A stretch of DNA of 64,000 nucleotides from Moniliella sp. 'wahieum'. Its lineage: Eukaryota. Positions 9,991 to 64,000 of the stretch are shown piece after piece. The translations under genes and the position numbers were made by a program. The notes below the pieces were generated by a model. The model was not told the DNA's origin. It saw only the letters and a program-made list of their open reading frames with translations, and did no database searches. The stretch covers positions 62,001-126,000 of the forward strand of contig RSEE01000143.1 of assembly GCA_003971905.1 (NCBI GenBank), written 5' to 3'. Positions within the stretch are counted from its first letter, which is position 1. Every line of letters begins with the position of its first letter.

Positions 9991-10994
9991 TCTCTCGATC
10001 GCGCCCTTGCCTCTTCCCCATTAATGCGGCCTAGAAAGCTCAACAGGTCGCACGCTCCCTTTCCTGCTTGCACTTGGGAAGCCTGGCGGATTTTGCTTAC
10101 TTAGTTGCCCTGGCACAGCACGCCCCTCACGCAGATGCAGATGCAAACTCATACTCACACCCACACGCAGAAGGTGTACTACATGCACGTCATGCACCCA
10201 CACGTCGTCCCGAAGAGAAGCACGGGTCACAATCGTTCCGCGATAACCTGCTGCTGTCCCAACTGGAGGTGCTAAGGGAAGCGGCTCGATAAGTGCGGTA
10301 CCCAACAAACAATTGGCTCCTTAGTAGTGTAACCCTCCCCCCGCCTCTCCGCCTCCACCAGCCTCTAACCCGCCGATACGCATTTCGTTTCCTGTTCCTG
10401 TTCTTGTTCCTGTTCCTGTTCTGTTTCTTCTATACGTTAGCTTTGCTGTTGTTTCTGCCCCTCTCTGCTGTTGCGGCCCATTCCATCACCAATCACCAGC
10501 CACTACTAGTCACCACTTACCGGAGCTATCGTTATACCAATTACCAGTCACCCGTCACCGTGACGAGGGAACCTCTGATCGGATTTGAAGGGCAAAGATA
10601 GGCGGATGCAGTCGATAAAGGTTAATAACGGGCGTGTTGGAATGGGATATCATGAGAAGAAAGTGGGAGGTCGGGGGGGGGGGGGGGGGGGTAACGTGTA
10701 ATAGCTGATGAATTTAGTCCTTTGTCTAATTGATTGGAAATAAGGACAGTCCGGGGGAGGAACGAGTGGAGCGAGGGCAAATGGTGGTAGCAAAACTAGT
10801 TGGTCGAAGCGGGTTGAACGTTGAAGCCCCAAAGAGTCATTAATTCGTCCGTTTCTCATCCGTCTTTGATCATTTCGGGCGTCGTCTAAAAACAAAGGTG
10901 TTGGAAGGGATAAAGAGTAAGGTACTTAAGTACCAACAAGTGCCGTCGTGGCAGTCAGGCCTCGACCCGCTCATTGTCACGTCACGGTGACGCC

Positions 10995-13900
10995 TTACGG
11001 GCTGGCAGCAGCAAACTCGACCAAGACGTCAATCACGTTGGTGGGGCAGTCGACGTGCCAATGGGCCATGGTCTTCTTGGTGGCTGGACCGACGGTGACC
11101 GTGTAGAGGCTGAACGAGGGAGAGTGGGAGAGTGAAGAGGTTCGAAGAAAGCAAAATGGGACTAACAGTACCGTGGTGCGAGCCCGGTCCACGAGCGGGG
11201 TAACTGCGTGCTACCGCCGTCTCCCATACGTGCGGAGCCAAGTCCTCTCCTCTCAGTTCGTGGGTAGTCTCGTTCCCCTCGTCCCATACGTCCACCTCAT
11301 CTTGAATCATGTTCTCCATCGTCTCTTCTTCGCTGTCGTCCCTAGGATCCAGGCGGTCCAGGCCGAGGGGGTTGGGCGCATCCGTTCTGTCCTCGTAGAA
11401 GCAACAGGGCGCATCTGTCTCGTCCCCAAGCTCGCGTCGTCCTTCGGACGGCGACACAGAGGGACTGCGTGGCCGACTGGTGAGATCAAGGGAGGAAAAT
11501 GCGTGGTGTAAGCTTTCCCCGGCTCGGTTGACGGCCATCAGTGCACGAAACATATCTTCGTCCGTCTTGTCGTCCCCGGCACAGAAAACGAACTGAGCAG
11601 AGGGATGAGCGGCCAGAATGCGCTTGACAATCTCCCCCTTGTTCACCGCCAACGGACGAACCTCGAGGTTTTTCTTGCCAACCATCACCTCGATGGGTAA
11701 ACTGTGGGCATCCAGCAAGTTTTCCAGGTGCGCTTGACACTCTTTTGCTTGAAACGAGCCAAAGTCCGGATCGGCATTCCGATAGTGCCACGTGATGGAA
11801 CTTTTCTTGTCCTCAATAGCTGAGCCCAACGTACGCTGGAAGAAGACAAGGACAGTGTTAGTATCTTTTCAGGTCCAACGCGATAGACCAACATCGAACA
11901 AACAGGTAATCATGACGATGTTGATGTGTGGGGAGACATGCATACCTCAGTGTAATACTCAAAGATGGCGCGAATGTCGTCTTTCCAAGAGAGATCAAAT
12001 TCGGTGGTACTGTTGATCCATGGCTCTCCTGCCCCAGGCTCTTTGACAAAGGAACCATGCTCAGCAGAAACCCAATGGTCGTCCAGATGACCCAAATGCT
12101 GGGTGAGGAAATGCTGATCGCGGCCGGAAATGATGAAAATCACATTGCGCGGATCGCCACTGAGTTGGGCCAACGTTTCAATCAAGCGCGGCGACGGCAA
12201 CGCCTTTTCCGGCACACGCACAATCGGCGTCAACGTCCCATCGTAATCCAACAAGATCAGCCGTTGACCACGTTGCCCCAAACACTCGCTACTGGCGCTC
12301 GCCTCCCCGGCTACCACCCAATCGGACTGGATCGCTTTCAGGTTCAACTCCGGGGTCAGATGCGAGGTTTGCTCCACGTGCAACAGGTGCACCATCTGAC
12401 GGATCAAAGTCGCGGCCCAGGTATGCGACGTGTGCAGTGTAACTTCGTCATAGGCGTGCCGGTGTCGCCACTCTTTCTCCTCTGAGCTGATGGTGAGCGC
12501 ATCGTTGATGGCCTTGGCCACTCCCCACGTGTTCCATGGGTTGACCTGGAACGCTGTGCGCAACCGACTTGCCGTCCCGGTAAACTCGGACAAAACAAGA
12601 GGTGATTTATTTCCGTACTGCTCTTGACAAACCACATATTCCATCGACGTCGTGTTCATTCCGTCCCGAACCGACGTGACCAGCGCCAAGTTGGCCACAC
12701 TCAGCAGAGCAAATATTCGTCCGATCAATAATCTGATGGTAGTGGTGGACTGGGCAAAGGACAAGGTGCCAAACTCAGAGTTGATTTGCGACACGAGCTC
12801 GCTCACTTCCCGCTCTAGCGCTGGGGAATCGTGCACGGCAGGAGAGGTGACTTGAATCAGAACCACGTTGCCCCTCCACTGGGGATACTCGTCGAGCAGT
12901 TTCTTGAATGCTTGCATCTTTTGCAGCACACCACGAACCACGTCCAGCTTGTCCCGACCGACGATGATTTTTTTGCCCTGGTACATCCGTCGGAAACCTT
13001 GGATCTTGGTCTCTACTCCGGCCGACAGAGCTTCTTTGGCGATCCGCGCCGCGTCCATGCCACCGGGTTGTAACTGATCGTAACTTGGCCATTGAGAGAT
13101 TCGACTGTATTGAACGAGACGTCGAAGCCGCAGCCACGGATACAGGAAGACAAAAAGTGACGCGAGTAGGAAAACGCTTGAAAGCACGCAAAGTCAGCCG
13201 AGCATCCCTTGCAGAATCTCCGTCCGCTTGGGCAGACAACGGAATACTTCGCTCGAGGGAAATGGCGCATGATAAAACGTAAGTGCGCATCCGGAACCAA
13301 CTGACGCAGCATCTTGGGCACCAGAAGTAGGTGGTAGTCGTGAACAATGATCATGTCGCCTGGCTGTACTCCTGCGCAATCGTTCTGCAAACACTTGATT
13401 CGTGCACATACGTGTCCCACAACGTCGAATCATCCCAGGTGGAAGCGTTGATCGGATTGACATCTTCCACAGCAATAGTGCAACAGAGGCCAGAGCAACC
13501 GTTTTGCAGTACCCCTCGTAAAAGCGTGGGCTACCTCCGAGTCCATCCAGACGGGTACGTATTTGATCCCATACGCCTCCTCGCCATCGAGGCGCTCCTG
13601 TTCTTCCAACTCTTCTTTTCTCTCTTCTTTGGCGGCGGAGGTGGCAGTGCGGAAACACTTGTACAACCGAGATGCAAGGAACGACTCGAGCCCAGTCTTG
13701 GTCTTGATGGAGCCGACGGGCTCCACTCCAGAGTTCTGCGGACTGGGGGATGAGGTGCCATGACCTGGACCAGGGGGCAAGTCCGAGCAGACCGATCCCA
13801 CCCGTTCCAGATCACTGAGAACCTTCTCGATCTGAGCCTTCTCGTCGTCAGACAGCTGCTGGGCCAATCCGGTGCGCAACTCAGCTTGCGACTTGGCCGC

Positions 13901-15458
13901 AAAGTCAATGTCGCCCGGCCAGCCAATGAAGGTTTGCTTATGCGTCAGACATAGGCTGCGTACTCCGCTGTGAATAGCTTTGTGTCCACGACGAGGTGAT
14001 AATACCCACTGTTGGGAGGGGAGCACGCCATCCATTGGCTCTTTGACCGTGTCAGTGGCTTTGTAGCCGGCTGCTACTGAGGCAGAAGAGGCATCCGTAG
14101 AGCACCGCAGCCCAGAGGAAGTGGCGGGGGGGCATTGGCTTGCCTCCACTTCAGTGCACAAGTCGGTGGGAGGAACCCGTGCGTCCTGCCTATCTCCCGT
14201 CCCGCCACAAGATAAATGGGAAGAGCCGGGATCAACCTGGTCCAAGCTCTCGGGGGTATCTAGTGGCGTAAACCGGTCCTTGAGTTCATCCGCTTGTACC
14301 CCCGACTCGTCATCATCCATCATTGGAGGTTCCATCCAAGCCCGGCGGCCGGCATGGGCCTTGGCCCGTTCCTGGTTCTGACCCAACAGAGCATACATAT
14401 CTTGCCCCTCAAAACCATGAAGCGCCGTGTGCATGTCGGCCGCCCCGTCGCTCTTGTCCTTATTGAGTGCGATCAGGCCGAGCCCCGACTCAGATCTCCT
14501 TACAGGCATGTCGGTCAGACCTGCTTGAGCGCATCCATTGACCGCGCTCAGCCCCCCCGCTCGATGGGCCTCGGTATCGGAAGACAGAGTAGCTACACTC
14601 CTGCGGCCTCCGTCGCGCTGTGCCGGGACCCGGTCCGATTCCCCCGGCACCGGCATGCACAACGAAAGGGATGAAATGGCTGACGTGAATGATGCGCCCC
14701 GAGAGCGATGGATGGTCGGTCTGACTAGAGTAAGCTTGTTCCAGCTCGGCGAGCGAGGCACGGATCTGACTGATCGTCTCAAACTGCGGCCCGTCCGCAT
14801 CGTCAGCAGGGAAAAAGGGAGACACATCAACCCCCTGTGCTAGACTTTCTACACTGCTCCGGTGCCCACGGCTTGCCATGCTGGCTCGGCTGGCGCCCCA
14901 GGCAGACGGCAGAAGCGGCGGTGCAGAGGCAGCGGGAGACGCAAGTAGGCTCGAGGTTGCCTGCGAATCTTGCGGCCACGCCAGCGGCGCAACAGGCTCG
15001 TCCGTCAGGGTAGGCGAGGGCGGCGGGACCGGTGTTTGAGCATCGGGCAGAGCGGCGATGGATGGGGGGATAAGCGAACTCTGGGGCGCATGGTGGGAGC
15101 CATGTGTGTGATGCGATGGACCCTGGGGATGGAGGGGCTGGGGTTGCTGTTGGGACTGGGATTGGAATTGGAATTGGGACTGGGACTGGGACTGCCTTCG
15201 GGTGCGGTGCGAGCGGCCCTCGCCCCCAGTTCTGGTAGGGGAAGAGAGGCCAGGAGACGGGAGAGGCAATGATTGTTTGGCCATGCGGAGGATGTGGCCA
15301 GGCGCCGGCGGGAAGAGCTGGGGCTCCTCGGCGTACACTCCTGGCGCCAGCAATGATGTTCCGCTGCTGTGCTTGGCCTGGGCACTGGGCACCAGCAGGA
15401 GGGGTGGGATGGCATGGGAGGGGAGGGGGTGGTGGGGGCGGAGGGGAGGAGAAGAAGA

Positions 15459-47679: not shown

Positions 47680-50600
47680 GGCTCAGGGTCGCACCGTTGC
47701 AGCAAGGCCGTGTTAGCAGAACTTGTACGCCCACACGTTACCGCGCATGCGACGAATATCAAGCGAGAGAGACCGGGTAAATTTTGCAAGCGCGTAATCT
47801 CGACCGAGAAGCGAACTTCTTGACCATTGTCTACACTCGCTTGTCCGTACACGGGGCCGGGGGGCTTTTCTTGCCGAGCGAAGGCGAGGGCATCACACGT
47901 CCATTCGTCAAAGGCAGGCGTGAGGGCACGTTCCAAATCGGCCTGGGTGGGCGGGAAGACACTCGTGCGCAAATTGGTGCCCCATGCACCCAGTCCCCCG
48001 CGGCCACCGCGCCGAGCCGAAGACACTCCAACTTGAACTCTTCCTCGCGTCGCCAGACCAAAATCGATGCCCATACTGGCGAGCGCCGCGCGCACTCGCA
48101 TCAGCATTCCTGAGGTGGGAGGGAGGAGAGCGCACGCTGGTCCACCGCACCAACGTGTGGTACCGCAACATGGTATCGCTAAATGCTTAGGAACCGCCTT
48201 GGCGACCGGAACCGGGGCGGGACCACCTTGTGGACCGGGTGGTCGTCCGAGAAGTAAGTTCCGTGTCCCGGCTCGCTTCCGAATGAGTGCCACTGGTAGC
48301 CCGATCGAAGGTTGGACCGACGCCTGCCGCGTCTCCGGCGCACCCACCCACTTGTCGGAAGCAGGTTCACTTGCTTGCTCAGCGGGCAGCTCGGCGAGCG
48401 AGCGGCCACGGAACAGCCCATGGACCCGCCTGGCCGCATGGCTGGAATTTCGATCCCGTAGGGTCAGGCGTGTGCGGGGGCGAGCTGGAGACAGGAGTGG
48501 TGGCAGCGGCGGTGGGGGTAGGTTGAACCGACCGGGTGGTCGCCCGACGTTCTTTTTCTGCCTTGCGTGTGGGCAAGAGGAGAGCGTTTTCTCCGTCGCT
48601 GAGCGGCGGGAATTTCGGGCGGTGCCAGTCCTCCCCCACCCCAGTGGGCAGGGTCGAGGGGGCGCGGAGACAGGACCGAGAAAAGACAGAATCATACGGT
48701 GGGCCGCACCGATTCCTTTTATTGGAACGAGGCGAGCTGCTTGGTTTGGGGTTGTCCAGCTAGATGGCCGGCGCATCGGATGGTTGCTTGAGATCCAAGG
48801 AGCGGACGTTCCCGACGCGGTGCGGGGGGAGCTGGCAGGCTGGACTGTGGCCGGGCGGACACGCGGCGTGCCCTTGGGGGTTTCAGGTGCTACCACAACA
48901 GGGGTGGGGGCGGGGTGCATCCAGGTCTGCGCGCGCGGGTGTGTAGTGGGCACAGTGACATGTTCCGAAGCTGACTCACGGTGCGACGCGAAGCAGAAGC
49001 GGCCTCAGGTCCGGCAACGGGCGTCGCGGTGCCTTGGGAGTCAGATCGTGGCCGCCGGTGTGGGGCGATTGGGAATCGTCTGTCGAGACGAGGAGCGCGG
49101 AGACGAGTAGGTGAGAAGTGGACCGATTGGTCTGCCACCATCTCTGCGGGTTCGGCAGTGGCGTGTTGGACGCGGAGATGGGGCTGAAAATCGGCACGTG
49201 CGGCGGGGGGAGAGGCTGAGAGGGGGGCTCTGCTTTTCGGTATCAGCATCAGGTCCATGGCCTCTGGCTGGGCAAGAAGGGGCCGAGACTGTAGGCTTTT
49301 GTAAGGGCTCAGGCACGACCGTTTTTGGGGGGAAGGACGGCGGGAGGGAACGACGCGGATCCGAACGGGGTTGTTTACTGTACTCCACCTGGACCGTATG
49401 ACGGTTTGCGTGGGCAGCAGTCCCACTGTTCAGGTGCAAAGTCTGCTGGTGCACTGGGAGTAGGGACTTGAGGCCGAACAGTGTGCCGGTTGCTTGTGTC
49501 TGTCTCTTGGGTGTCCGTGACAGTTTCGCTGCGTGCAGGGATAGGATAGGATAGCTGGTCTGACCGATAGAGGAGGGGGGTTGCGGGAATTGGGCCTGCG
49601 CTTGAAGTTGTGTTGGAGGACCATCTGCTGGCGATAGAGTTGCCGTTTACGCGTCTGCTGTTCTGACGCAGCACGTTCAAGGTCTTCGACGCTGAACGAA
49701 AAGAGATCACGGTAGTCGGCGAGCCAAGGGTGGCTCATTACCTCATTCATGTCCGCGCGACGGCGTGGATCAGGGACGAGCATGCGACTGAGCAGATCGC
49801 AAGGCAAACGAGAGATGTACTCGGGGAAGGTGAGGGGGGTGGCAAGAATGTAGTGATAGAGTTGATTGATGTTATCCGAATCGGGGTTGGCAGGATCGTC
49901 GTCAAAGGGAAGGTAGCCGGCGAGCATCGCATAGAGAATTACGCCGCAAGACCAGATGTCAGCCGCTTCACCATTGTAAAGTCCATCTTGCACTACGAGC
50001 TCGGGAGCAGCAGCATAGCACGGAGAGCCACATGAAGTAGCCATCAAATCGTCGACCCGGTCACCAAAGTGTTGGCAAACCCAAAATCGGTGATGATGAC
50101 GTTGCGATTGCGGTCGAGGAGCAAGTTTTCGAGCTTAAGGTCGCGGTGCACGATGCGCTTTTGGTGGAGATAATGAACACCGCTGATAGCTGGGCAAACA
50201 TGCGACAGGCATCCTTCTCACGAAGGTACTTGGGGCGAGAATGTGGTCGAAGAGCTCACCCCCTTGAGGTATGTCAGCAAACGCTCGTCTCAACGGTTGT
50301 TGCCTACAGGGCGAAGGAATACATACCCGAGGCATACTCAAGCACAATGCCAATGTAACGGTCCGACTCGACGACCTCATAGAGGCGCACAATGTTGGGG
50401 TGTCGGACGGAGCGGAGCACCTGGATCTCACGATCAATCTTGGACGGCCGCTGGGAACTGTGCTCCGAGCTGAGCGAGCGGCTAGCAGCAATGCTAGGGA
50501 CACGGTCACGACGGATCAGTTTGACGGCCACTTCTTCTCCGAAACTCTTGTGAACACCGAGCTTGACTTTGCCAAATTCGCCTTCACCCAAGGTCTGGAG

Positions 50601-54260: not shown

Positions 54261-54784
54261 GATGGTGGCAAGAGACACCGCACGCTCTATGTGGGTCGCA
54301 GTCTTGGCATGAGAGGGCCGCCCCGTCGTTCCGCCTGCCATTCATTGTTTGTGGCCTGGCTTAATAGTAGTACTAGAGCAGGCTACGTGAGTGTGCCGAT
54401 CCGGGCCCCCAAGTGCCCCCCTTCGAAACTGGACGCTTGGCTCGTTGAAGCTTGAGCTTGAGCCTCGGATCCAGCGATCAGATCGATCAGCCAGCGGCGG
54501 TAGACTCTCCCTCACCATTGGCTGGCGGTCTGGTGACACGTGACGCGTGACGCAAGGCCTGTTCAACTTTCAATGTTCGCCTCTCAAGTTTCAAAACGCC
54601 TGTCCAACTCATTAAACCCTCCCATTCGGCTCAAACGTCAAACCTTAATGGGCGTGCTTAATGACGGGCGGAATTCGGGAGGCGGAGACAGCGCCCAGCT
54701 GGCCGCCTTGCTTTTTTCTCCAAGCTCGAGAACAGCCATTTACTTGGGGAAGCACTCCTGCTGCCCTCTCTCGAGTGGCCAACC

Positions 54785-57072
54785 ATGCCGCTGCTTCGGA
54801 AACGAGGTGCGTCTCCCCTCCCTTTCCTACCTTGCATCTTTCGGCCGGGAGCACTGACCCCCCACTCATCCGCCAGACGGACGACGAGAACGCTTCTCCC
54901 CTCGCAAGCTGGAGCGGCGCCTCGAGCAGTTGGGCGCCACCCAACTGCCGCCGGCCCCAGTGGTGGCCACGCTGCAAGCAGCCGTGTACGAAGGCATGTC
55001 CACGAAGGAACTGGACAATGTGCTGTGCCGTGCCTTGGCCAGCCACGCGCTTGTGCACCCCGAGTACGAGCGGATCGCAGGCCAGGTGGCCCTGGCTGCG
55101 CTCTATCGCGATACGGAGGTGGCGTTCAGCCGGGTGGCTCGGCAGGCCCGCCCTGAGCTGGTACGATGGGTGGACATGTACGGGCCGGAGCTCGATGCAA
55201 TTGTGCAGCACACCAGGGATACTCGGCTGGGGTATGTGGCGGTGCAAACGCTCTGGCCGCACCTGTTGCAGGTTCAGGGACAGGTGGTGAGCGGCCCCAA
55301 CATTTTTTTCTCCGTTGTGCTTTGGCCGTTCCGCATACCAGTCTCAATGAGGTACAAGAGAGGTACGATCTCCTTTCTCTTGGCATCCTCCTCCCCCCCG
55401 GCTTGACTGTGTGGTCCAGGGACAACAACACGCTCGCAATGGAAGATGACTCGCTGGAGGGTATCTTCAACACAGTCAAGGCCGCCGCGCTCACAGTCAA
55501 TGAGGGGGCAGGCTGAGTGTCTCCAACATCCGTTCCGAGGGCACATCGATCGCTGGTACCGGGGGGCGATCCAGTGGGGTGGTGCCTATGCTGCGTGTGT
55601 AATGAGGCCGTGCGGAGCAACAATGGAACGATGCGGGTATATCTCGAGCCTTGGCATGCCGACCTGCTCTCCTTTCTCGATTTAGCTAAAGCGAACGGGA
55701 AAGAGGAGCGGCGGGCGCGATGGTTGGAATATGGACTGTGGGTGCCAGACCTGTTTATGAAACGGGTCGAACAAGACTTGCCGTGGTCCTTGATGAGTGC
55801 CGACGAGTGTCCCGGGTTGCAGACGGCGGTGGGCGCTGCGTTCGAGCAACTTTACGTCCAATACGAACAGGCCGGACGGCACGACGCACCTCCCCGCACG
55901 GGACTTGTGGAATGCCATTCTCACTGCCCAACTGGAGACGGGAGGACCGGCTCTACTCTACAAGGACGCGGCCAACAGCAAGTCCAATGAACGCAATCTG
56001 GGCACTGTTCTCGGTAGCACCTTCCATACGGACGGGACACAGGTCGCCTCTCCCTCGGCAGCGCAGGTGAGGGGGAGCATTCTCTCTCTTACTTTATTGA
56101 GGGGGCCGAGATCAACCACACAAGCTGCACCAACGAACAAAGGAGGTGGTATCATTCCTTGCTGCCATGGGCGGGCGTGCTCTCGGCATCTCCCTCTGCG
56201 GGTTGCTGGACACTTTCCATCTTCTTGGCGTGGCCTACGATTCGGTTGAGGCGCGTCGTATCAACCGTGAAGTGTTTGAGACGGCGTACATGCCGCGATG
56301 GAGCGGTCCATGGAGCTGGCCCGGCAGCATGGACCCTATAGCGGATGGGAAGGCAGTCCCATCTCCCACGGCCAGTTCCAGTTCGACCTGTGGCCGCACG
56401 CTATGCTATCGGGACGGTACGACTGGGAGCAACTGCGCACCCAGGTCATGCAGACAGGGGTGCGGCACGCTCTTCTCCTAGCTCAAGGGGGTAGCGCCGC
56501 GATAGATCCTGCCGAGTCCAATGTGCTGTGCCACACTCTCAGCAATGGGCAACAAGTGGAGTATGTGCGACCGAGTCTGGTGCGTGCGTTGATCGCTCTC
56601 GATCTGTGGAACGAGGGGATACGAGAACGGATTCTCCTCCGGCGGGAGCATTGCCTCTCTCACCGAAGTCCCAGCCTGGATCAAAGCGGTGTACAGGACG
56701 GGGTGGGAGATGAGGCAGCGTGCAGTCTTGGACCAGGCGATTGAGCGGGCTCCCTTTTTGTGCCAATCCCAAACTATGGCGCTCCGCTTGGCGCACCCGA
56801 CGCGCGGGCAAGTGACGAGCATGCACTTTTACGGCTGGAAGCACGGTTTGAAAACAGGGTGTACCCAACTGCTTACTTCCCCGCCCTGGCGCGGACGCAG
56901 CCGGGGCCACCCATTTACTACCCTGTCGACCCGCTCGCCCTCGGTTCGCTCCCGCTCCTCCTCTTGCTCCTCATCGCGTGCATCGGCTTCAACGTATAAT
57001 ACCACCGCTCTGCCCGAAACAGACGCAGCTCAGTGCTCGTTTGACGAGGGTTGCCTCATGTGTGGGGGCTAA
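54785..57072 (+). CDS. Ribonucleotide reductase large-subunit (class Ia R1) homologue lacking catalytic residues
   Basis: Intron 54807-54876 yields MPLLRKRDGRRE (ATP cone). Then VYEGMSTKELDN, HPEYERIAG, ERPQH, DDSLEGIF, YLEPWHAD, GLWVPDLFMKRVE, ETGGPALLYKDAANSKSN, GSPISHGQFQFDLW, TSMHFYGWKHGLKTG and terminal CLMCGG. Several frameshifts. Confidence 0.9.
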
Positions 57073-58274: not shown

Positions 58275-60212
58275 TCATCTCCTCAGCAGAAGGGCGGGGA
58301 ATACAATGGGTATGAAAGAGATCGACCACGATAGTGGGGTGAAAAGAAGACTTTTGCTGGCGCTTTCAGAGGCCAGGCGTTCATAGTGCGCCCGTTGGCG
58401 AGGAAATTTGTTCTTGCTCCAGTTGAAAACGTAGATGGAAGACTTTTCAAAGCCATTCAGGGCGTACTTGGCAAACAGGGCCTCGTGTACGCGCTCTGTG
58501 GGACGCAGGATGAAGTCCAACATGATGTTGGCCGTGGAGAGCAGTTCGGATTCAGAGTAGCCCGAGTAATGCACCATGTTGGGGTCCCAGGTCGGAGTGG
58601 TTTCAATCACCTCTCTTGCCAACCAGAACGCGGCAGCGGCAAGGAGTGAAGGCGGATGGCCGAGAAGGCGCATGTCCATGATGCTGATCTCCACCCTACA
58701 TTGTGTCAGCGGCAACGAATGGCCGGGCAAAAAAATTATTAGGAGGGCACGACAGATACTTGGCAATGTTGCGAGTCTGGAGATCATACTCGTCTGCTTT
58801 GGAAATGCGACGGAGAAAATTCAAGGGGTTGGGGTAGGACAGATCAAAGTTAAGGGTGCGGAGAATGTAGCGCTCAGCGCCCAGAATGTCTTGCTCAGAT
58901 ACAGCGGCCATGTAGGCATAGTTTTCTACCGAAGGGCAAACTACCTCCTCGTACTTGGCCGCGAGGAAGGGGCTGCGGCGGCAAGCAGCTGGAGGCGATC
59001 AAGGGATACAAAGCGGACGCTGAGCATGCGATCCATCACGTTAACCGCTAAGAAAGCGTTTCGGACATGAGACGGAATTTGTGTTGTACACGGATCAGCC
59101 AGTTGATGGTCTTACACCGGTGTGCCCATGTCATATCCTCTTGCAGGTCAATGTAGTGCGGGTTGGGCAGTGTCTGGAGCTGGACACCCATCGGTCAGTC
59201 TGCCGTCTGCGTGCACGACGTGCCACAGCAAGTCCAACAAAGGACGAAGCGCGTACCTCGATCCTGCGCATGTAGGCGAAAATGTCCTGGACATACTCAT
59301 ACGCCATCGTCGGGTCCCTTCATCTTCCAGGTCCAGATCGGTCCAGCCGGCGTCCTTGGGGGGCAAGTCAGGGCGGCTGGGCGACTGAGGGACGTATGGG
59401 GGCAGGGGGGGCGAGGACAGGGCGGGGGCAAGAGCAGGCGCAGGAACAGGAGAAGGGGCAGGGTCAGGGTCAGGGTCAGGGTAACGAGCGCGCTTCGTCG
59501 GGCGGCTGGGGGCAGTGGTGCAAGAACGCTTTTTTCCGGCGACCTGTGGCTGCGGCGGGGTCGGGGCGTCGGGGTCGGCATTAGCCGAGCCGGGGTGGAG
59601 CGGCAGCCGTTCGCGTGCGACGGCAGCCGACGCGTTTCCAACGCTGGCGGTGGGCCCATGGGGGTCGGGGAGCCGCCGGGGGGCAGGGCCAGAGGGGCGA
59701 GCAACGTCATGGCACCCCCAGCTCCCGGTGGTGGCAGCGCGCCAGCTGGGGTGGGCGCCAGGCAGGCAGAACTTATGGCCTGGCTGCCGAGCGGCGGCCA
59801 CACACGCCCTGTGCTGAGTGGGCTGTCATCGCACCGTGCACTGGCCTTGTGCCTGTGCGGCCCCACCACCACCAGCCTGGCCGGAGACTGCTCCTGGGCC
59901 TGTGTCCCGCCGGCAGGCACCACAGCGCACTTGCACTGCGACGCAGCCGGCCCCGGATCCCGGGTTTTTTGGATGGCGTTTGCGCTTCTTTGGCCAGCAC
60001 CCTCCACCGAGGAAGTCTGACGAAAACACTCTCAACTTTGGGGACGGGAAGCAAAGTGGCTGTCCTAGTCCCGGCCACTCGTTACCCTGCTCCTTAGCTT
60101 TTCTTCAGCGTGCTGAAGCTCTGCTCTCTCCCACAGCTCTCACATCTCACAGCTCAGCTTGAGCGCTCACAGCTCTGACAGCTCTCAGCGCGCGCACCTG
60201 TGGCGGACCCAT
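58275..60212 (-). CDS. B-type (G2/M, Clb1/Cdc13-like) cyclin; frameshifted
   Basis: GWTDLDLEDEG, KFRLMSETLFLAVNVMDR, LAAKYEEVVCPSV, AERYILRTLNFDLSYPNPLNFLRRISKADEYDLQTRNIAKYL and HPPSLLAAAAFWLAR. The start is inferred from ATG GGT CCG CCA CAG followed by a GTGCGC donor. Confidence 0.88.
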
Positions 60213-60637: not shown

Positions 60638-61689
60638 GACACCAATTGAACACAACAGGAGCCTATAGGTTTTGCTATAGTCTCTCTCGCCATTTCTGGA
60701 TACAATTATCACGGTTTTACAAGAGGCCTGTTGAGGCCACACCTGGAAGGGTCAGCAGTGCGTACAACAAAACTGATGCATACACAGGTAGACTTCGAAG
60801 ATCCAAGAGGGGATCGAGGGAAAATATGATAAACGGCGCCATTTTTTTTGGGATGTATATGGAGGGACCGCCGTACTATTATAGGTCCCAACACAACTGC
60901 TGATGGATATCTGAGGTGGTGGTGCTAGTAAAATGATTCCCACGCCAAACAGGCCAGGGCTGTTGAGAGCAAGGATCGCGGGTGAAAAAGTGAATCACGT
61001 GGTGCCATGCGACAATGTGAGAGGCGTGCGAAGAAGGATAGATGATGGTACCACACTAAAATCCACACTAATATACGCTTTTGAAGCTGGAAGGCTGATG
61101 GCAACTTGATACATGATGCATGATGCATGATGCATGATGATCGATATTGAATTGCAGTTGCCAGCCGCGCGGAAAGATAGACAATCGGTGCACGGGCCAG
61201 CGGTGCGCGGGCGCAAGAGGATGTAGGGTTGAGAGTTAAAGTAGGCGTCAGATGGCTGGCCTGTGCGGCGCTCCGAAGGGTGTTTTTGTATCTTATAAGG
61301 AAACAGTGGTATATCGGCAGGCCGCGTCCCCCCACATGTGTGTTCTGCGGCCCACCAGCCGGTAGAGCCCCTCTTCAGATTGCGCCCGCCTCACTAATCA
61401 TAGCAGGGGGGATGGGCGGGGGGGTGGAGCGATACCAGCTACTGGGAGGCCCACCGAAAGAGGGCGCCCCCGTCCTTGGAAAAGCAGCAGAGGCAACAAG
61501 CTTCTGCGCAGGGACTGTATAGTACTAGTGAAGCTAATGATAGCAGATGAAAAAAGTCTGGCGCCATCTCGATTCCAGGGGCAGTGTTGGCCACCACGCC
61601 TCAAACCCTCATCCGTCTTCTCTCTCCCTTGGCAGAGTCTGCCGTAACGAATCTTTCCTTCCCTCCATCCGCCGTTATTGCTGGGCCCG

Positions 61690-64000
61690 ATGGAAGCCTC
61701 CCTGCCATCCGACCCGCCTCCCGCCTGCAGCGGGGCCGAGGCGCCTCCTCCTTTGCCCGTGCCTCCCTCCATGCACCCACAATATCTCTCACCCGCAGCG
61801 CGCGCAACAGCTTCCGCCACTCCTTTCTTCCTCATCAAGAGGACCGCACCGACGAAAGCCACACCTTTGTTCCGCCTCTCATTGCCGAGGTTAGGCCCGA
61901 TCCAGGCGTGCCTCCCATTCTGCTGTCCCCTTTGCTGTGGTGAACTGCGTTGTCTTTGGCGAATTTCTGCTGGCTGGTGTAGCAGGTCCTTTCTCTTCAG
62001 TTTAATCCACGATTTAGAACCGCACATGGACGACGGAACGACAGCCACATGGGCCGGCATCTTGGCTGCCGGCTTTTTCTTCTCCCAATTTCTCACCTCC
62101 CTGCTCTGGTCTGCCGCGGCTGACAAGTACGGGCGCCGCATTGTCCTTTTTACTTCGGCTGCCGGTTCGACGATTAGTGTCGTTCTGTACGGCTTTTCGC
62201 CTAGCCTTCGTTTTGCACTGGCTATGCGTCTTGTCCAGGGCTTTTTTAATGGTGCGTGGGCGTGGCCAAAGGCTCCGTCCGGTAGGTGCTTTCCCGTTCA
62301 CAATATGCTGATGTGTGCTAACATTGTGTCTGCCACAGTGACCTGACAGTCCCTGCAAATGAGGGCCAAGCCTTCGCTGTGCTCGGCTTCTGGTGGGCAT
62401 GGGCGGTATGTTGGGTACGTCATTCTCCACTCCTTCATTTTCAACCACACTCACAAAACCATTGTGCATATACATCTAATATTCCAGACCCATATTGGGT
62501 GGAGTCCTAGAACATCCGGGAGACAAGTATCCCTTCCTCGCTATTCCTCTCTTTATCACGTACCCGTACCTTCTCCCCTGCCTAGCGGCGGGGGCTTGCA
62601 CACTGATGGGTGCGGTCCTGGCACCCTTTACAGGTCCCAATGGAGGCTCGAGACAGGAAGGGCTCCCCTCGGTCGAAGAATTTCACGAAGAAGATTCTGG
62701 CCACCCTATGACGCCTAGGACCACCAGTTTGGTCCTAAGTCAGGCCCCACCACACTTTAGAAAAGCTTCAACTACCAGTCCCCTTCCACATGGGGTCCGA
62801 ACTAGTTTGCACCAGCAAGCTTTGCTGAACACAGCCGCAACTCCATGCGGCCGGAATCACAGATATTTGATGAGGACATGGAGAGTATGTGTCTTCAGCT
62901 CAAGTTCCCCCTCCCCTCCTCCTGTCCCTCGCCGGTTGGACGCTTGTCGTTTGCCCATCGCTTTGTTCTTGCAAACGATGACTTTCCCGTACACCTGTCC
63001 GATTTTTGGATCGCATCGGCTATCAATGGAGAAGAGTCGGAACCCATTGTCTTTTTTGACGACACAACTCCATCGGCAGTGTCGTCACGAAACACATCCT
63101 TTTCTGAGGAGGAGACGGGCGCTACTGAGATACTTCAAGACTCATTTTCCCATGAGGAGGAGGAGCAGGAGGAGGATGAGGAGCAGGAGGAGGAGGAGGA
63201 GCAGGAGGAGGAGCAGGAGGAGGAGGAGCAGGAACAATAGCAGGAAGAGAGGGAGCAAGAGCAGGGCCAACAGCCTGGTGAAGAGGCGCCACTACTCCCT
63301 GCCTGGCCGCGCAACGGAACCAGAGGTGAGGCCCCACGGCTTTCGGTATTTTCCCCATTTGAGGAAAGTTCAACCACCGGTCTCCGTCCGCTTTCTTCCT
63401 GGGCCGGAGCAGGGTTAGTACGGGGCCGCGCTTGCCAAGTCTGTATCGCTACTCGGGCCTCGGCATGGAGCTTCCATGGCACAGCCGAGTCTCTTTGTCC
63501 CCAGCATACGACATCAGGCCATGGTGGGGGAGGGAGTCGGCACAAGCGCAGGGGGGCGAGATCGTTGCCCTCCCTGAGCGACAGGTCAAGTACGGAACAA
63601 TCCCTGAAGCATCTCCACTGCCTCCTCCGCAAACTGGAACGTTTAATCGACTTCCGCTGGTAATAATCGGACATTACGCTTTGCTTGGCTTGCACGCCTC
63701 CACGTTTGATCAGGTCTTCCTTTCCTTCCTCGTGGCTCCGTGGGAGAATGGCGGACTGGGCTTGACAGCAGCTCACTTTGCTGCGCTAATAGCCTTCATG
63801 GTCATCTGTCAGTTGGGATTCCAATTTTATGTGTATCCGTACTTGGTCCGCCTTATGGTCCATTGACGCACCTTGGGATGCTGCGAGTTGGCCTGTTACT
63901 TTATCTACCGATCTACACCCTTTTCCCGCTCCTACGTTCCCTTCCCCTTCCCGAATCAGGGTGATGGCAGTCATGGTACTTCTTTCGGCAGTGCGCTGGC
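61690..64000 (+). CDS. MFS transporter (YCR023C/ZIF1-like) with a long acidic central loop; runs off the window
   Basis: WAGILAAGFFFSQFLTSLLWSAAADKYGRRIVL (motif A), RLVQGFFNG, YPYLLPCL and FDQVFLSFLVAPWENGGLGL. Confidence 0.85.

Follow-up and report, generated by a model that had tools for sequence, protein, structure and literature searches.

A putative catalytically dead paralogue of the ribonucleotide reductase large subunit in a Moniliella-like fungus

Can a large subunit of class Ia ribonucleotide reductase (RNR) lose the residues of its chemistry and still be kept by a fungal lineage, and for what would it then be kept? The question is raised by a gene at positions 54785 to 57072 on the plus strand of a 64,000-nucleotide stretch of contig RSEE01000143.1 of Moniliella sp. 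'wahieum' (hereafter, the window), which encodes a homologue of the large subunit (R1, or alpha) of this enzyme. As judged from its sequence, the encoded protein is incapable of nucleotide reduction because the radical cysteine, the redox cysteine pair, residue N426, the pathway tyrosine pair, and the phosphate loop are gone. The gene is probably maintained by selection as a dead R1 paralogue rather than being a pseudogene in decay, since its coding path is free of stops, an intact relative (protein P0087) exists, and its coding signature is that of a gene.

Gene model and intact relative

Single-frame pieces of the locus matched yeast and human R1 in the PDB (55517 to 55990, E = 4.6e-29; 56280 to 56744, E = 1.4e-18; 54858 to 55406, E = 8.8e-11), and the collinear R1 pieces detected by tblastn with five R1 protein queries were confined, within the window, to this locus. 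An earlier interpretation made from the letters alone (the sequence-only reading) had described the gene as collinear with class Ia R1 from KRDG to the C terminus, and both the PDB alignments and that to P0087 agree with it from DGRRERF through the stop. Exon 1 (54785 to 54806), read directly, comprises the ATG, the residues MPLLRKR, and the first base of an Asp codon; joined to exon 2 it gives MPLLRKR-DGRRERF, in which KRDG is the start of the ATP cone. The two exons are separated by a phase 1 intron of 70 nt (54807 to 54876) with GT and AG borders, reading GTGCGT ... CTGAC ... CAG, of which CTGAC is a branch-like site. The sole stop along the alignment path of the locus is an in-frame stop within this intron, and in the reading frame of P0087, too, homology fades directly upstream of DGRRERF. 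Exon 2 (54877 to 57072, including the TAA stop at 57070 to 57072) was delimited by frameshift-aware alignment to P0087 and by the matches to yeast and human R1, and codes for about 735 residues of the R1 homologue. The gene retains its start codon, splice sites, and stop codon, and the protein begins 7 residues ahead of KRDG, with neither an added domain nor an N-terminal extension.

The sequence-only reading had looked to relatives with the same losses for a decision on the gene, and one was found, intact and 787 amino acids long. In an exhaustive HMMER search of 1.84 billion representative proteins (E up to 0.001), with a poorly conserved N-terminal piece (54873 to 55298) as the query, P0087 stood out among 145 hits with 98.1 bits and 44% identity, the next match scoring 58.7 bits. 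P0087 is an uninterrupted protein and belongs to a 90% cluster of five near-identical members, of which four have 787 residues and differ from each other at 3 to 4 positions, while one, of 728 residues, starts from a later Met. The window copy and P0087 are identical at 446 of 739 aligned codons, about 20 intron read-through codons included, or about 60%; counted in the multiple alignment, they are identical at 423 of 708 aligned positions. Common to the two are the catalytic losses, a loop 2 shortened by 7 residues, the stretch SVRSRSSS in the tail, and a C-terminal end with CLMC.

Lost catalytic motifs and retained fold

Residues are given in yeast Rnr1 numbering, obtained through a HMMER alignment of P0087 to 1zyz, and every replaced motif that the sequence-only reading had quoted is found in its place (within STFHTD, AAQVRGS, LLLAQGGSAAI, and KTGCTQL). 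The finger loop SNLCxE reads STFHTD at 56016 to 56033, so that N426, C428, and E430 correspond to T, H, and D; P0087 reads STENTE, with T for N426, N for C428, and E430 kept. These equivalences, and the loss of C443 and C218, were upheld by the alignment to 1zyz. The motif TAVCNLAS is represented by AAQVRGS (56058 to 56078), with Q at C443, where P0087 has M. No TGT or TGC codon occurs in any plus-strand frame of 56009 to 56125, as had been claimed. In the region of C218, canonically SPTLFN...SSCFL, the equivalent segment at 55394 to 55453 reads PPGLTVWSRDNNTLAMEDDS and holds no in-frame Cys, the reading PPGLTVWSRDNNTL being confirmed within the same interval; P0087 has A at C218. Where canonical R1 presents the phosphate-binding loop APMPTASTSQILG, the alignment shows a shortened LLLAQGGSAAIDPAESN (56472 to 56522), and PMPTAST is replaced and shortened in P0087 as well. 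The segment at 56815 to 56871 consists of the conserved helix TSMHFYGWKHGLKTG followed by CTQL for MYYL, which turns Y741 into T and Y742 into Q (KTGCTQL at 56851 to 56871; KTGCTTL in P0087, with T for both tyrosines). The sequence-only reading had considered that a homopolymer correction could turn KTGCTQL into a form ending in VYQL, a change that the intact KTGCTTL of P0087 makes unnecessary. Finally, loop 2 reads NEAVRSNNGT (55601 to 55630) in place of NNTARYVDQGGNKRPGA and is 7 residues shorter, with the same deletion in P0087. Both copies therefore fail the hallmarks of the enzyme at N426 and C428, the cysteine pair, the tyrosine dyad, the phosphate loop, and the full length of loop 2.

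Two other ways of reading this part of the gene were rejected. One treated the stretch from KTG onward as shifting frame repeatedly; the comparison with P0087 indicates that CTQL is the true reading. The other supposed that about 30 residues are missing, or that an intron intervenes, beyond 56068; the sequence is collinear with P0087 there across two further frame breaks.

The retention of the fold, which the sequence-only reading had also claimed, is borne out by P0087. This protein scores 421.3 bits against the Pfam ten-stranded alpha/beta barrel (PF02867) and 37.1 bits against the all-alpha domain (PF00317), and its AlphaFold2 model (mean pLDDT, 76; pTM, 0.81) superposes on human R1 with a TM score of 0.92 and a root mean square deviation of 2.2 Å, and on yeast Rnr1 with a TM score of 0.84. 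Low confidence is limited to the intron-derived N terminus, the C218 loop, loop 2 (residues 274 to 282), residues 306 to 313, and the tail. At the N-terminal end of the window copy, a remnant of the ATP cone, DGRRERF ... EGMSTKELD ... HPEYERIAG (54876 to 55082), aligns to residues 6 to 99 of yeast Rnr1.

The best-kept segments are the loop 1 segment SVSNIRSEGTSIAGTGGRSSGVVPMLRV, the stretch YLEPWHAD...LWVPDLFMKRVE, the helix TSMHFYGWKHGLKTG, and the C-terminal C-x6-CLMC. The segment SVSNIRSEGTSIAGTGGRSSGVVPMLRV (55516 to 55599) is 93% identical to P0087 and close to the canonical HNIRAxGSYIAGTNGTSNG; from the E. coli and yeast R1 structures, we take it to be the specificity site and dimer interface of R1. 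The helix LWVPDLFMKRVE (55736 to 55771), placed by PDB alignment, is presumably alpha-I and would form one side of the groove into which the small subunit's C-terminal tail fits, and TSMHFYGWKHGLKTG presumably corresponds to alpha-13, which, together with the YLEPWHAD...LWVPDLFMKRVE helix, would flank that groove. The C-terminal segment CSFDEGCLMCGG (57034 to 57069) keeps the CX2C redox tail along with an upstream Cys, and corresponds to CALDESCLMCSG in P0087 and CALENKDECLMCSG in Mycena R1; its CLMC (57052 to 57063) is found in P0087 and in the R1s of Mycena and Clavulina. In yeast R1 the CX2C tail acts on the neighbouring protomer, and to our knowledge the sole job of this tail is the re-reduction of the active-site disulfide of R1. 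According to PMC6382339, the catalytic cysteine pair of R1 cannot be regenerated without the CX2C motif.

Between KTGCTQL and the CX2C motif, the tail (56905 to 57033) is rich in Ser and Arg, unlike canonical R1 tails, and the elements GHPxTTLS and NTTA within it are also common to P0087. It includes SVRSRSSS (56941 to 56964), which P0087 has without a change and which canonical R1 tails lack. The Ser/Arg-rich stretch could be a phosphorylation or interaction region.

Frame breaks, coding evidence and selection

Frameshift-aware alignment of the locus to P0087 (BLOSUM62; frameshift penalty, 12) revealed nine places at which the frame breaks, with 1 or 2 bases apparently missing from each, at approximately 55287, 55514, 55600, 55880, 55891, 56079, 56132, 56287, and 56634. 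Whether these are mutations or assembly errors can be judged from neighbouring genes of the window. A TPS2-like gene on the minus strand (10900 to 15450), with GT20 and trehalose-phosphatase domains, finds its best match among named proteins in TPP2 of Moniliella megachiliensis (75% identity). Its alignments to TPP2 and to a second relative agree on 12 frame breaks within about 1.9 kb (14642, 13525, 13496, 13468, 13407, 13379, 13365, 13282, 13196, 13063, 12755, and 12720). At 11 of them bases appear to have been lost, and the breaks sit in stretches otherwise nearly identical to the Moniliella orthologues; the path holds 0 stops, and 869 of 1373 codons are identical to P0355. The breaks in this gene are patchy, with 11 of them within 805 nt and none over the next 775 nt. 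Similarly, in a Snf1/AMPK-like kinase gene on the minus strand, the frame changes at about 50050 to 50053, in the activation segment, and both frames align end to end on the same PDB chains (on Snf1 3hyh_A, residues 121 to 166 in one frame and 166 to 266 in the other), while a TRM1 tRNA methyltransferase gene changes frame at about 20480 on the plus strand, inside the Pfam domain and with overlapping profile coordinates; neither change leaves room for an intron. The density of breaks is alike in the R1-like gene (9 per 2.2 kb) and the TPS2-like gene (12 per about 1.9 kb). Since the TPS2-like, kinase, and TRM1 neighbours are broken in the same manner, the nine breaks in the R1-like gene are most likely indel errors of the assembly, and in an assembly so rich in such errors they do not by themselves indicate a pseudogene, although some may be real mutations. 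The check for an open frame that the sequence-only reading had put forward thus came out divided: the frame is not a single one, and its 726 whole codons hold no true stop.

The absence of stops can be set against neutral decay. We simulated it on the 726 window codons, with uniform sites, transitions making up half of the changes, and 200 runs per divergence: at 77% amino acid identity, a divergence comparable to that of this gene, the runs accumulated 8.5 stops on average and none of the 200 remained stop-free, while 4 of 200 did so at 90% identity and 29 of 200 at 95%. The GC content of the gene at codon positions 1, 2, and 3 is 0.638, 0.496, and 0.698, and its relative synonymous codon usage follows that of the TPS2-like gene (r = 0.78), a correlation that drops to 0.33 and 0.19 in the two shifted frames.

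The comparison of the two dead copies with canonical R1s bears on the timing of the loss. At 440 ungapped columns where P0251, an intact canonical R1, and Mycena R1 agree, 205 residues are kept in both dead copies, 78 are replaced by the same new residue in both and 84 by different residues, and 73 are changed in one copy; among the new residues common to both are the T at N426 and the T at Y741, together with the C that precedes the latter. Such sharing suggests that catalysis was lost before the two lineages split and that the protein has been conserved since. Across 363 columns invariant in at least 95% of 119 canonical R1s, both dead copies retain the canonical residue at 170, neither does at 136, and only one does at 57. 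The sequence-only reading had inferred a selected pseudoenzyme from a targeted loss of chemistry: selection agrees with the intact P0087, the 78 shared changes, and the lack of stops, and it is the word "targeted" that does not stand, given that the 136 losses are protein-wide.

Origin, proposed role and rival explanations

Two quick maximum-likelihood trees grouped the window copy with P0087 in a clade with a support of 100 on a very long stem. The canonical R1 nearest to this clade is P0251, an 893-residue R1 with all catalytic motifs intact and 63% identity to Mycena R1, with SH-aLRT values of 98 (LG+G4, 40 rows) and 87 (LG+C20, 24 rows). RDLDL, AGRVA, SLEGIF, and FQFDLWD are common to P0251 and the dead copies and are not found in Mycena R1. 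We therefore place the dead R1 gene, provisionally because of the long branch, as a lineage-specific duplicate of fungal RNR1; on the evidence of the trees, it would have arisen by duplication of the fungal lineage's own RNR1. The thiyl-radical Cys, the redox Cys pair, the radical-transfer Tyr, the phosphate loop, and part of loop 2 would then have been lost before the two lineages split, and the paralogue would have been under purifying selection since that split. The C terminus of P0251 is CDAC-SG, while the dead copies keep the CLMC typical of other basidiomycete R1s; the ancestral tail is thus better preserved in the dead paralogue than in its active relative.

What has been kept suggests a role. 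We propose that the dead R1 may be an alpha-prime, a non-catalytic partner or regulator within the RNR machinery, for which the R1 fold, the loop 1 and dimer segment, the two tail-groove helices, a recognisable ATP cone, and the CX2C tail would have been retained. The CX2C tail of such a protein would be usable only on another protein, because the dead copy has no active-site Cys of its own. The most economical reading is a pair of alpha-prime with canonical alpha, a large-subunit counterpart of yeast Rnr2-Rnr4, in which alpha-prime might also dock the small subunit and could act in either of two ways, stimulating by donation of its tail or damping as a decoy. For the statement as a whole, a selected dead paralogue with a role as an RNR partner, we consider the chances to be about even. 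Its specific form, a heterodimeric large subunit in which an active alpha receives the CX2C tail in trans from a permanently dead alpha-prime, perhaps also supplying allosteric or small-subunit docking sites, is put forward as a tentative suggestion with a minor share of the probability.

Several observations weigh against this proposal. The R1-like gene stands in the assembly with nine frame breaks in 2.2 kb and not as one open frame, and some of these breaks may be real mutations. The ATP cone (PF03477) scores 21.9 bits in the window copy and 16.0 bits in P0087, below the cut-off of 25.8; the canonical P0251, called without its first exon, falls short as well (19.6 bits). The 136 losses at invariant columns are spread over the whole protein and not confined to the active site, so that allosteric and partner-binding sites may also have been lost, and loop 2, which couples the specificity site to the active site, is shortened in both copies. 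With the better model, P0251 is placed next to the dead clade with only moderate support, and the stem leading to that clade is very long. The roles assigned to the helices, and an action of the tail in trans, are taken over from the literature on R1, and selection on the dead R1 is read from two lineages only. Among the best 120 of 1267 hits to P0087, nothing fell between 43% and 100% identity, and hence no further member of the dead family appeared. A metagenome scan with P0087 returned 10 loci, all of them canonical-type R1s with 33 to 43% identity and none of the dead family; a word-based search among longer proteins with the piece 56289 to 56639 gave nothing above 45% identity and missed P0087; and a protein atlas search returned generic R1 clusters only.

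Other explanations start from the same observations. The breaks, nine in 2.2 kb, could mark a young pseudogene in this genome, with some of them real and a working copy kept by the carrier of P0087, and a short neutral phase would accommodate the lack of stops, as the stop-free runs at 95% identity illustrate. We deem this improbable: the breaks match those of the conserved TPS2-like neighbour in density and type (nine losses here, 11 losses among 12 breaks there), the kinase and TRM1 genes are broken as well, no stop has appeared in 726 codons, and start, splice sites, and stop are intact. That the protein is still an enzyme, either reducing nucleotides by an unconventional mechanism or using the old pocket for some other reaction, is hardly credible. 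Its barrel fold is kept and P0087 retains the E430 equivalent, but neither copy has the radical Cys, the redox Cys pair, N426, the pathway Tyr pair, or the phosphate loop, the pocket loops are among the low-confidence parts of the P0087 model, and the residues that replace the lost ones differ between the window copy and P0087 (H/N, Q/M, N/A, and D/E), which is the pattern of unconstrained sites and not of a new active site.

The remaining alternative accepts a selected dead R1 and assigns it a role outside ribonucleotide reduction, with the R1 fold as a scaffold in the manner of UL45/M45; it might, for instance, sense redox state or nucleotides, serve as an adaptor in signalling, or act in self/non-self discrimination. 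Such a role would suit the protein-wide divergence (136 of the 363 canonical-invariant columns changed in both copies), the shortened loop 2, and the SVRSRSSS stretch that is new in both dead copies and not present in canonical tails. It has a viral precedent in inactive R1 homologues with other roles (PMC5469499) and a fungal one in an R1 C terminus with a second, non-enzymatic function (PMC3618301). The best-kept features, namely the loop 1 and dimer segment, the tail-groove helices, and the CX2C tail, are those of RNR assembly and turnover, however, and no domain or N-terminal extension has been added, so that we regard an outside role as rather unlikely.

The proposed partner role within RNR finds its parallel in S. 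cerevisiae Rnr4, which is also a cellular paralogue of an RNR subunit retained after the loss of residues of the chemistry (reportedly, it is without cofactor ligands), and which pairs with its active paralogue as we suggest here. Rnr4, however, is a beta (R2) paralogue with an experimentally established partnership, whereas in the present case the paralogue is of alpha (R1) and the partnership is read from conserved segments. Rnr3 keeps its catalytic residues, in contrast to the dead R1, which is without all of them. Like the dead R1, it is a duplicated R1, and it heterodimerises with Rnr1 according to PMC4245953, where yeast R2 is given as an Rnr2-Rnr4 heterodimer. With canonical fungal RNR1 (P0251, Mycena, and Clavulina) the dead R1 shares the fold, the domain order, and the CLMC end typical of basidiomycete R1s; it differs in its identity of about 40%, in the replacement of the catalytic, radical-transfer, and phosphate motifs, and in a loop 2 that is 7 residues shorter. 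The betaherpesvirus proteins UL45 and M45, the latter of which carries an extra N-terminal interaction motif, are viral and act on host signalling, while the dead R1 is cellular, has no extension, and keeps the CX2C tail. What they have in common with it, according to PMC5469499, is an R1 homologue without catalytic function kept for another purpose. Neurospora crassa UN-24 is, according to PMC3618301, a fungal R1 whose C terminus serves a further, non-catalytic function and interacts with another molecule of R1; different from the dead R1, it is an active and essential R1, and its second function, non-self recognition, lies in allelic variation of the tail and not in a loss of catalysis.

By its sequence, the dead R1 is a pseudoenzyme that descends from an RNR subunit, and only two lineages are known to carry it so far. 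The literature that was searched, consisting of partial texts and not extending to subscription journals, describes catalytically dead R1s in herpesviruses and no cellular or fungal one. If the heterodimer reading is true, this would be the first cellular pseudo-R1 and the large-subunit mirror image of Rnr2-Rnr4. A dead R1 that pairs with an active one would offer a natural system in which the catalytic, allosteric, docking, and tail re-reduction roles of R1 protomers are separated, which RNR biochemists otherwise achieve by means of engineered heterodimers. The locus also carries a lesson for annotation: in an indel-rich assembly, a gene should not be called a pseudogene for its frame breaks alone, and one intact relative changed the reading.

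The R1-like gene is set among fungal housekeeping genes, its intron is of the spliceosomal type, and the best hits of the named neighbour genes point to a source organism close to Moniliella, within the Ustilaginomycotina. Some 240 bp upstream of the start codon of the R1-like gene, CACGTG and ACGCGT adjoin each other (54537 to 54552). The MCB-like cell-cycle box ACGCGT, with this one site at 54543, is not enriched in the window (13 found against 13.9 expected), and a scan for bacterial-type promoters and terminators, of a kind not applicable to this gene, returned nothing. Just downstream, on the opposite strand, lies a cyclin gene (58278 to 58998, minus strand) with Cyclin_N and Cyclin_C domains, which is spread over two frames with overlapping profile coordinates, pointing to an intron or an indel error. 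Further on, a fragmentary match to major-facilitator and sugar-transporter profiles (MFS_1, 44.9 bits) is found at 61648 to 62343 on the plus strand.

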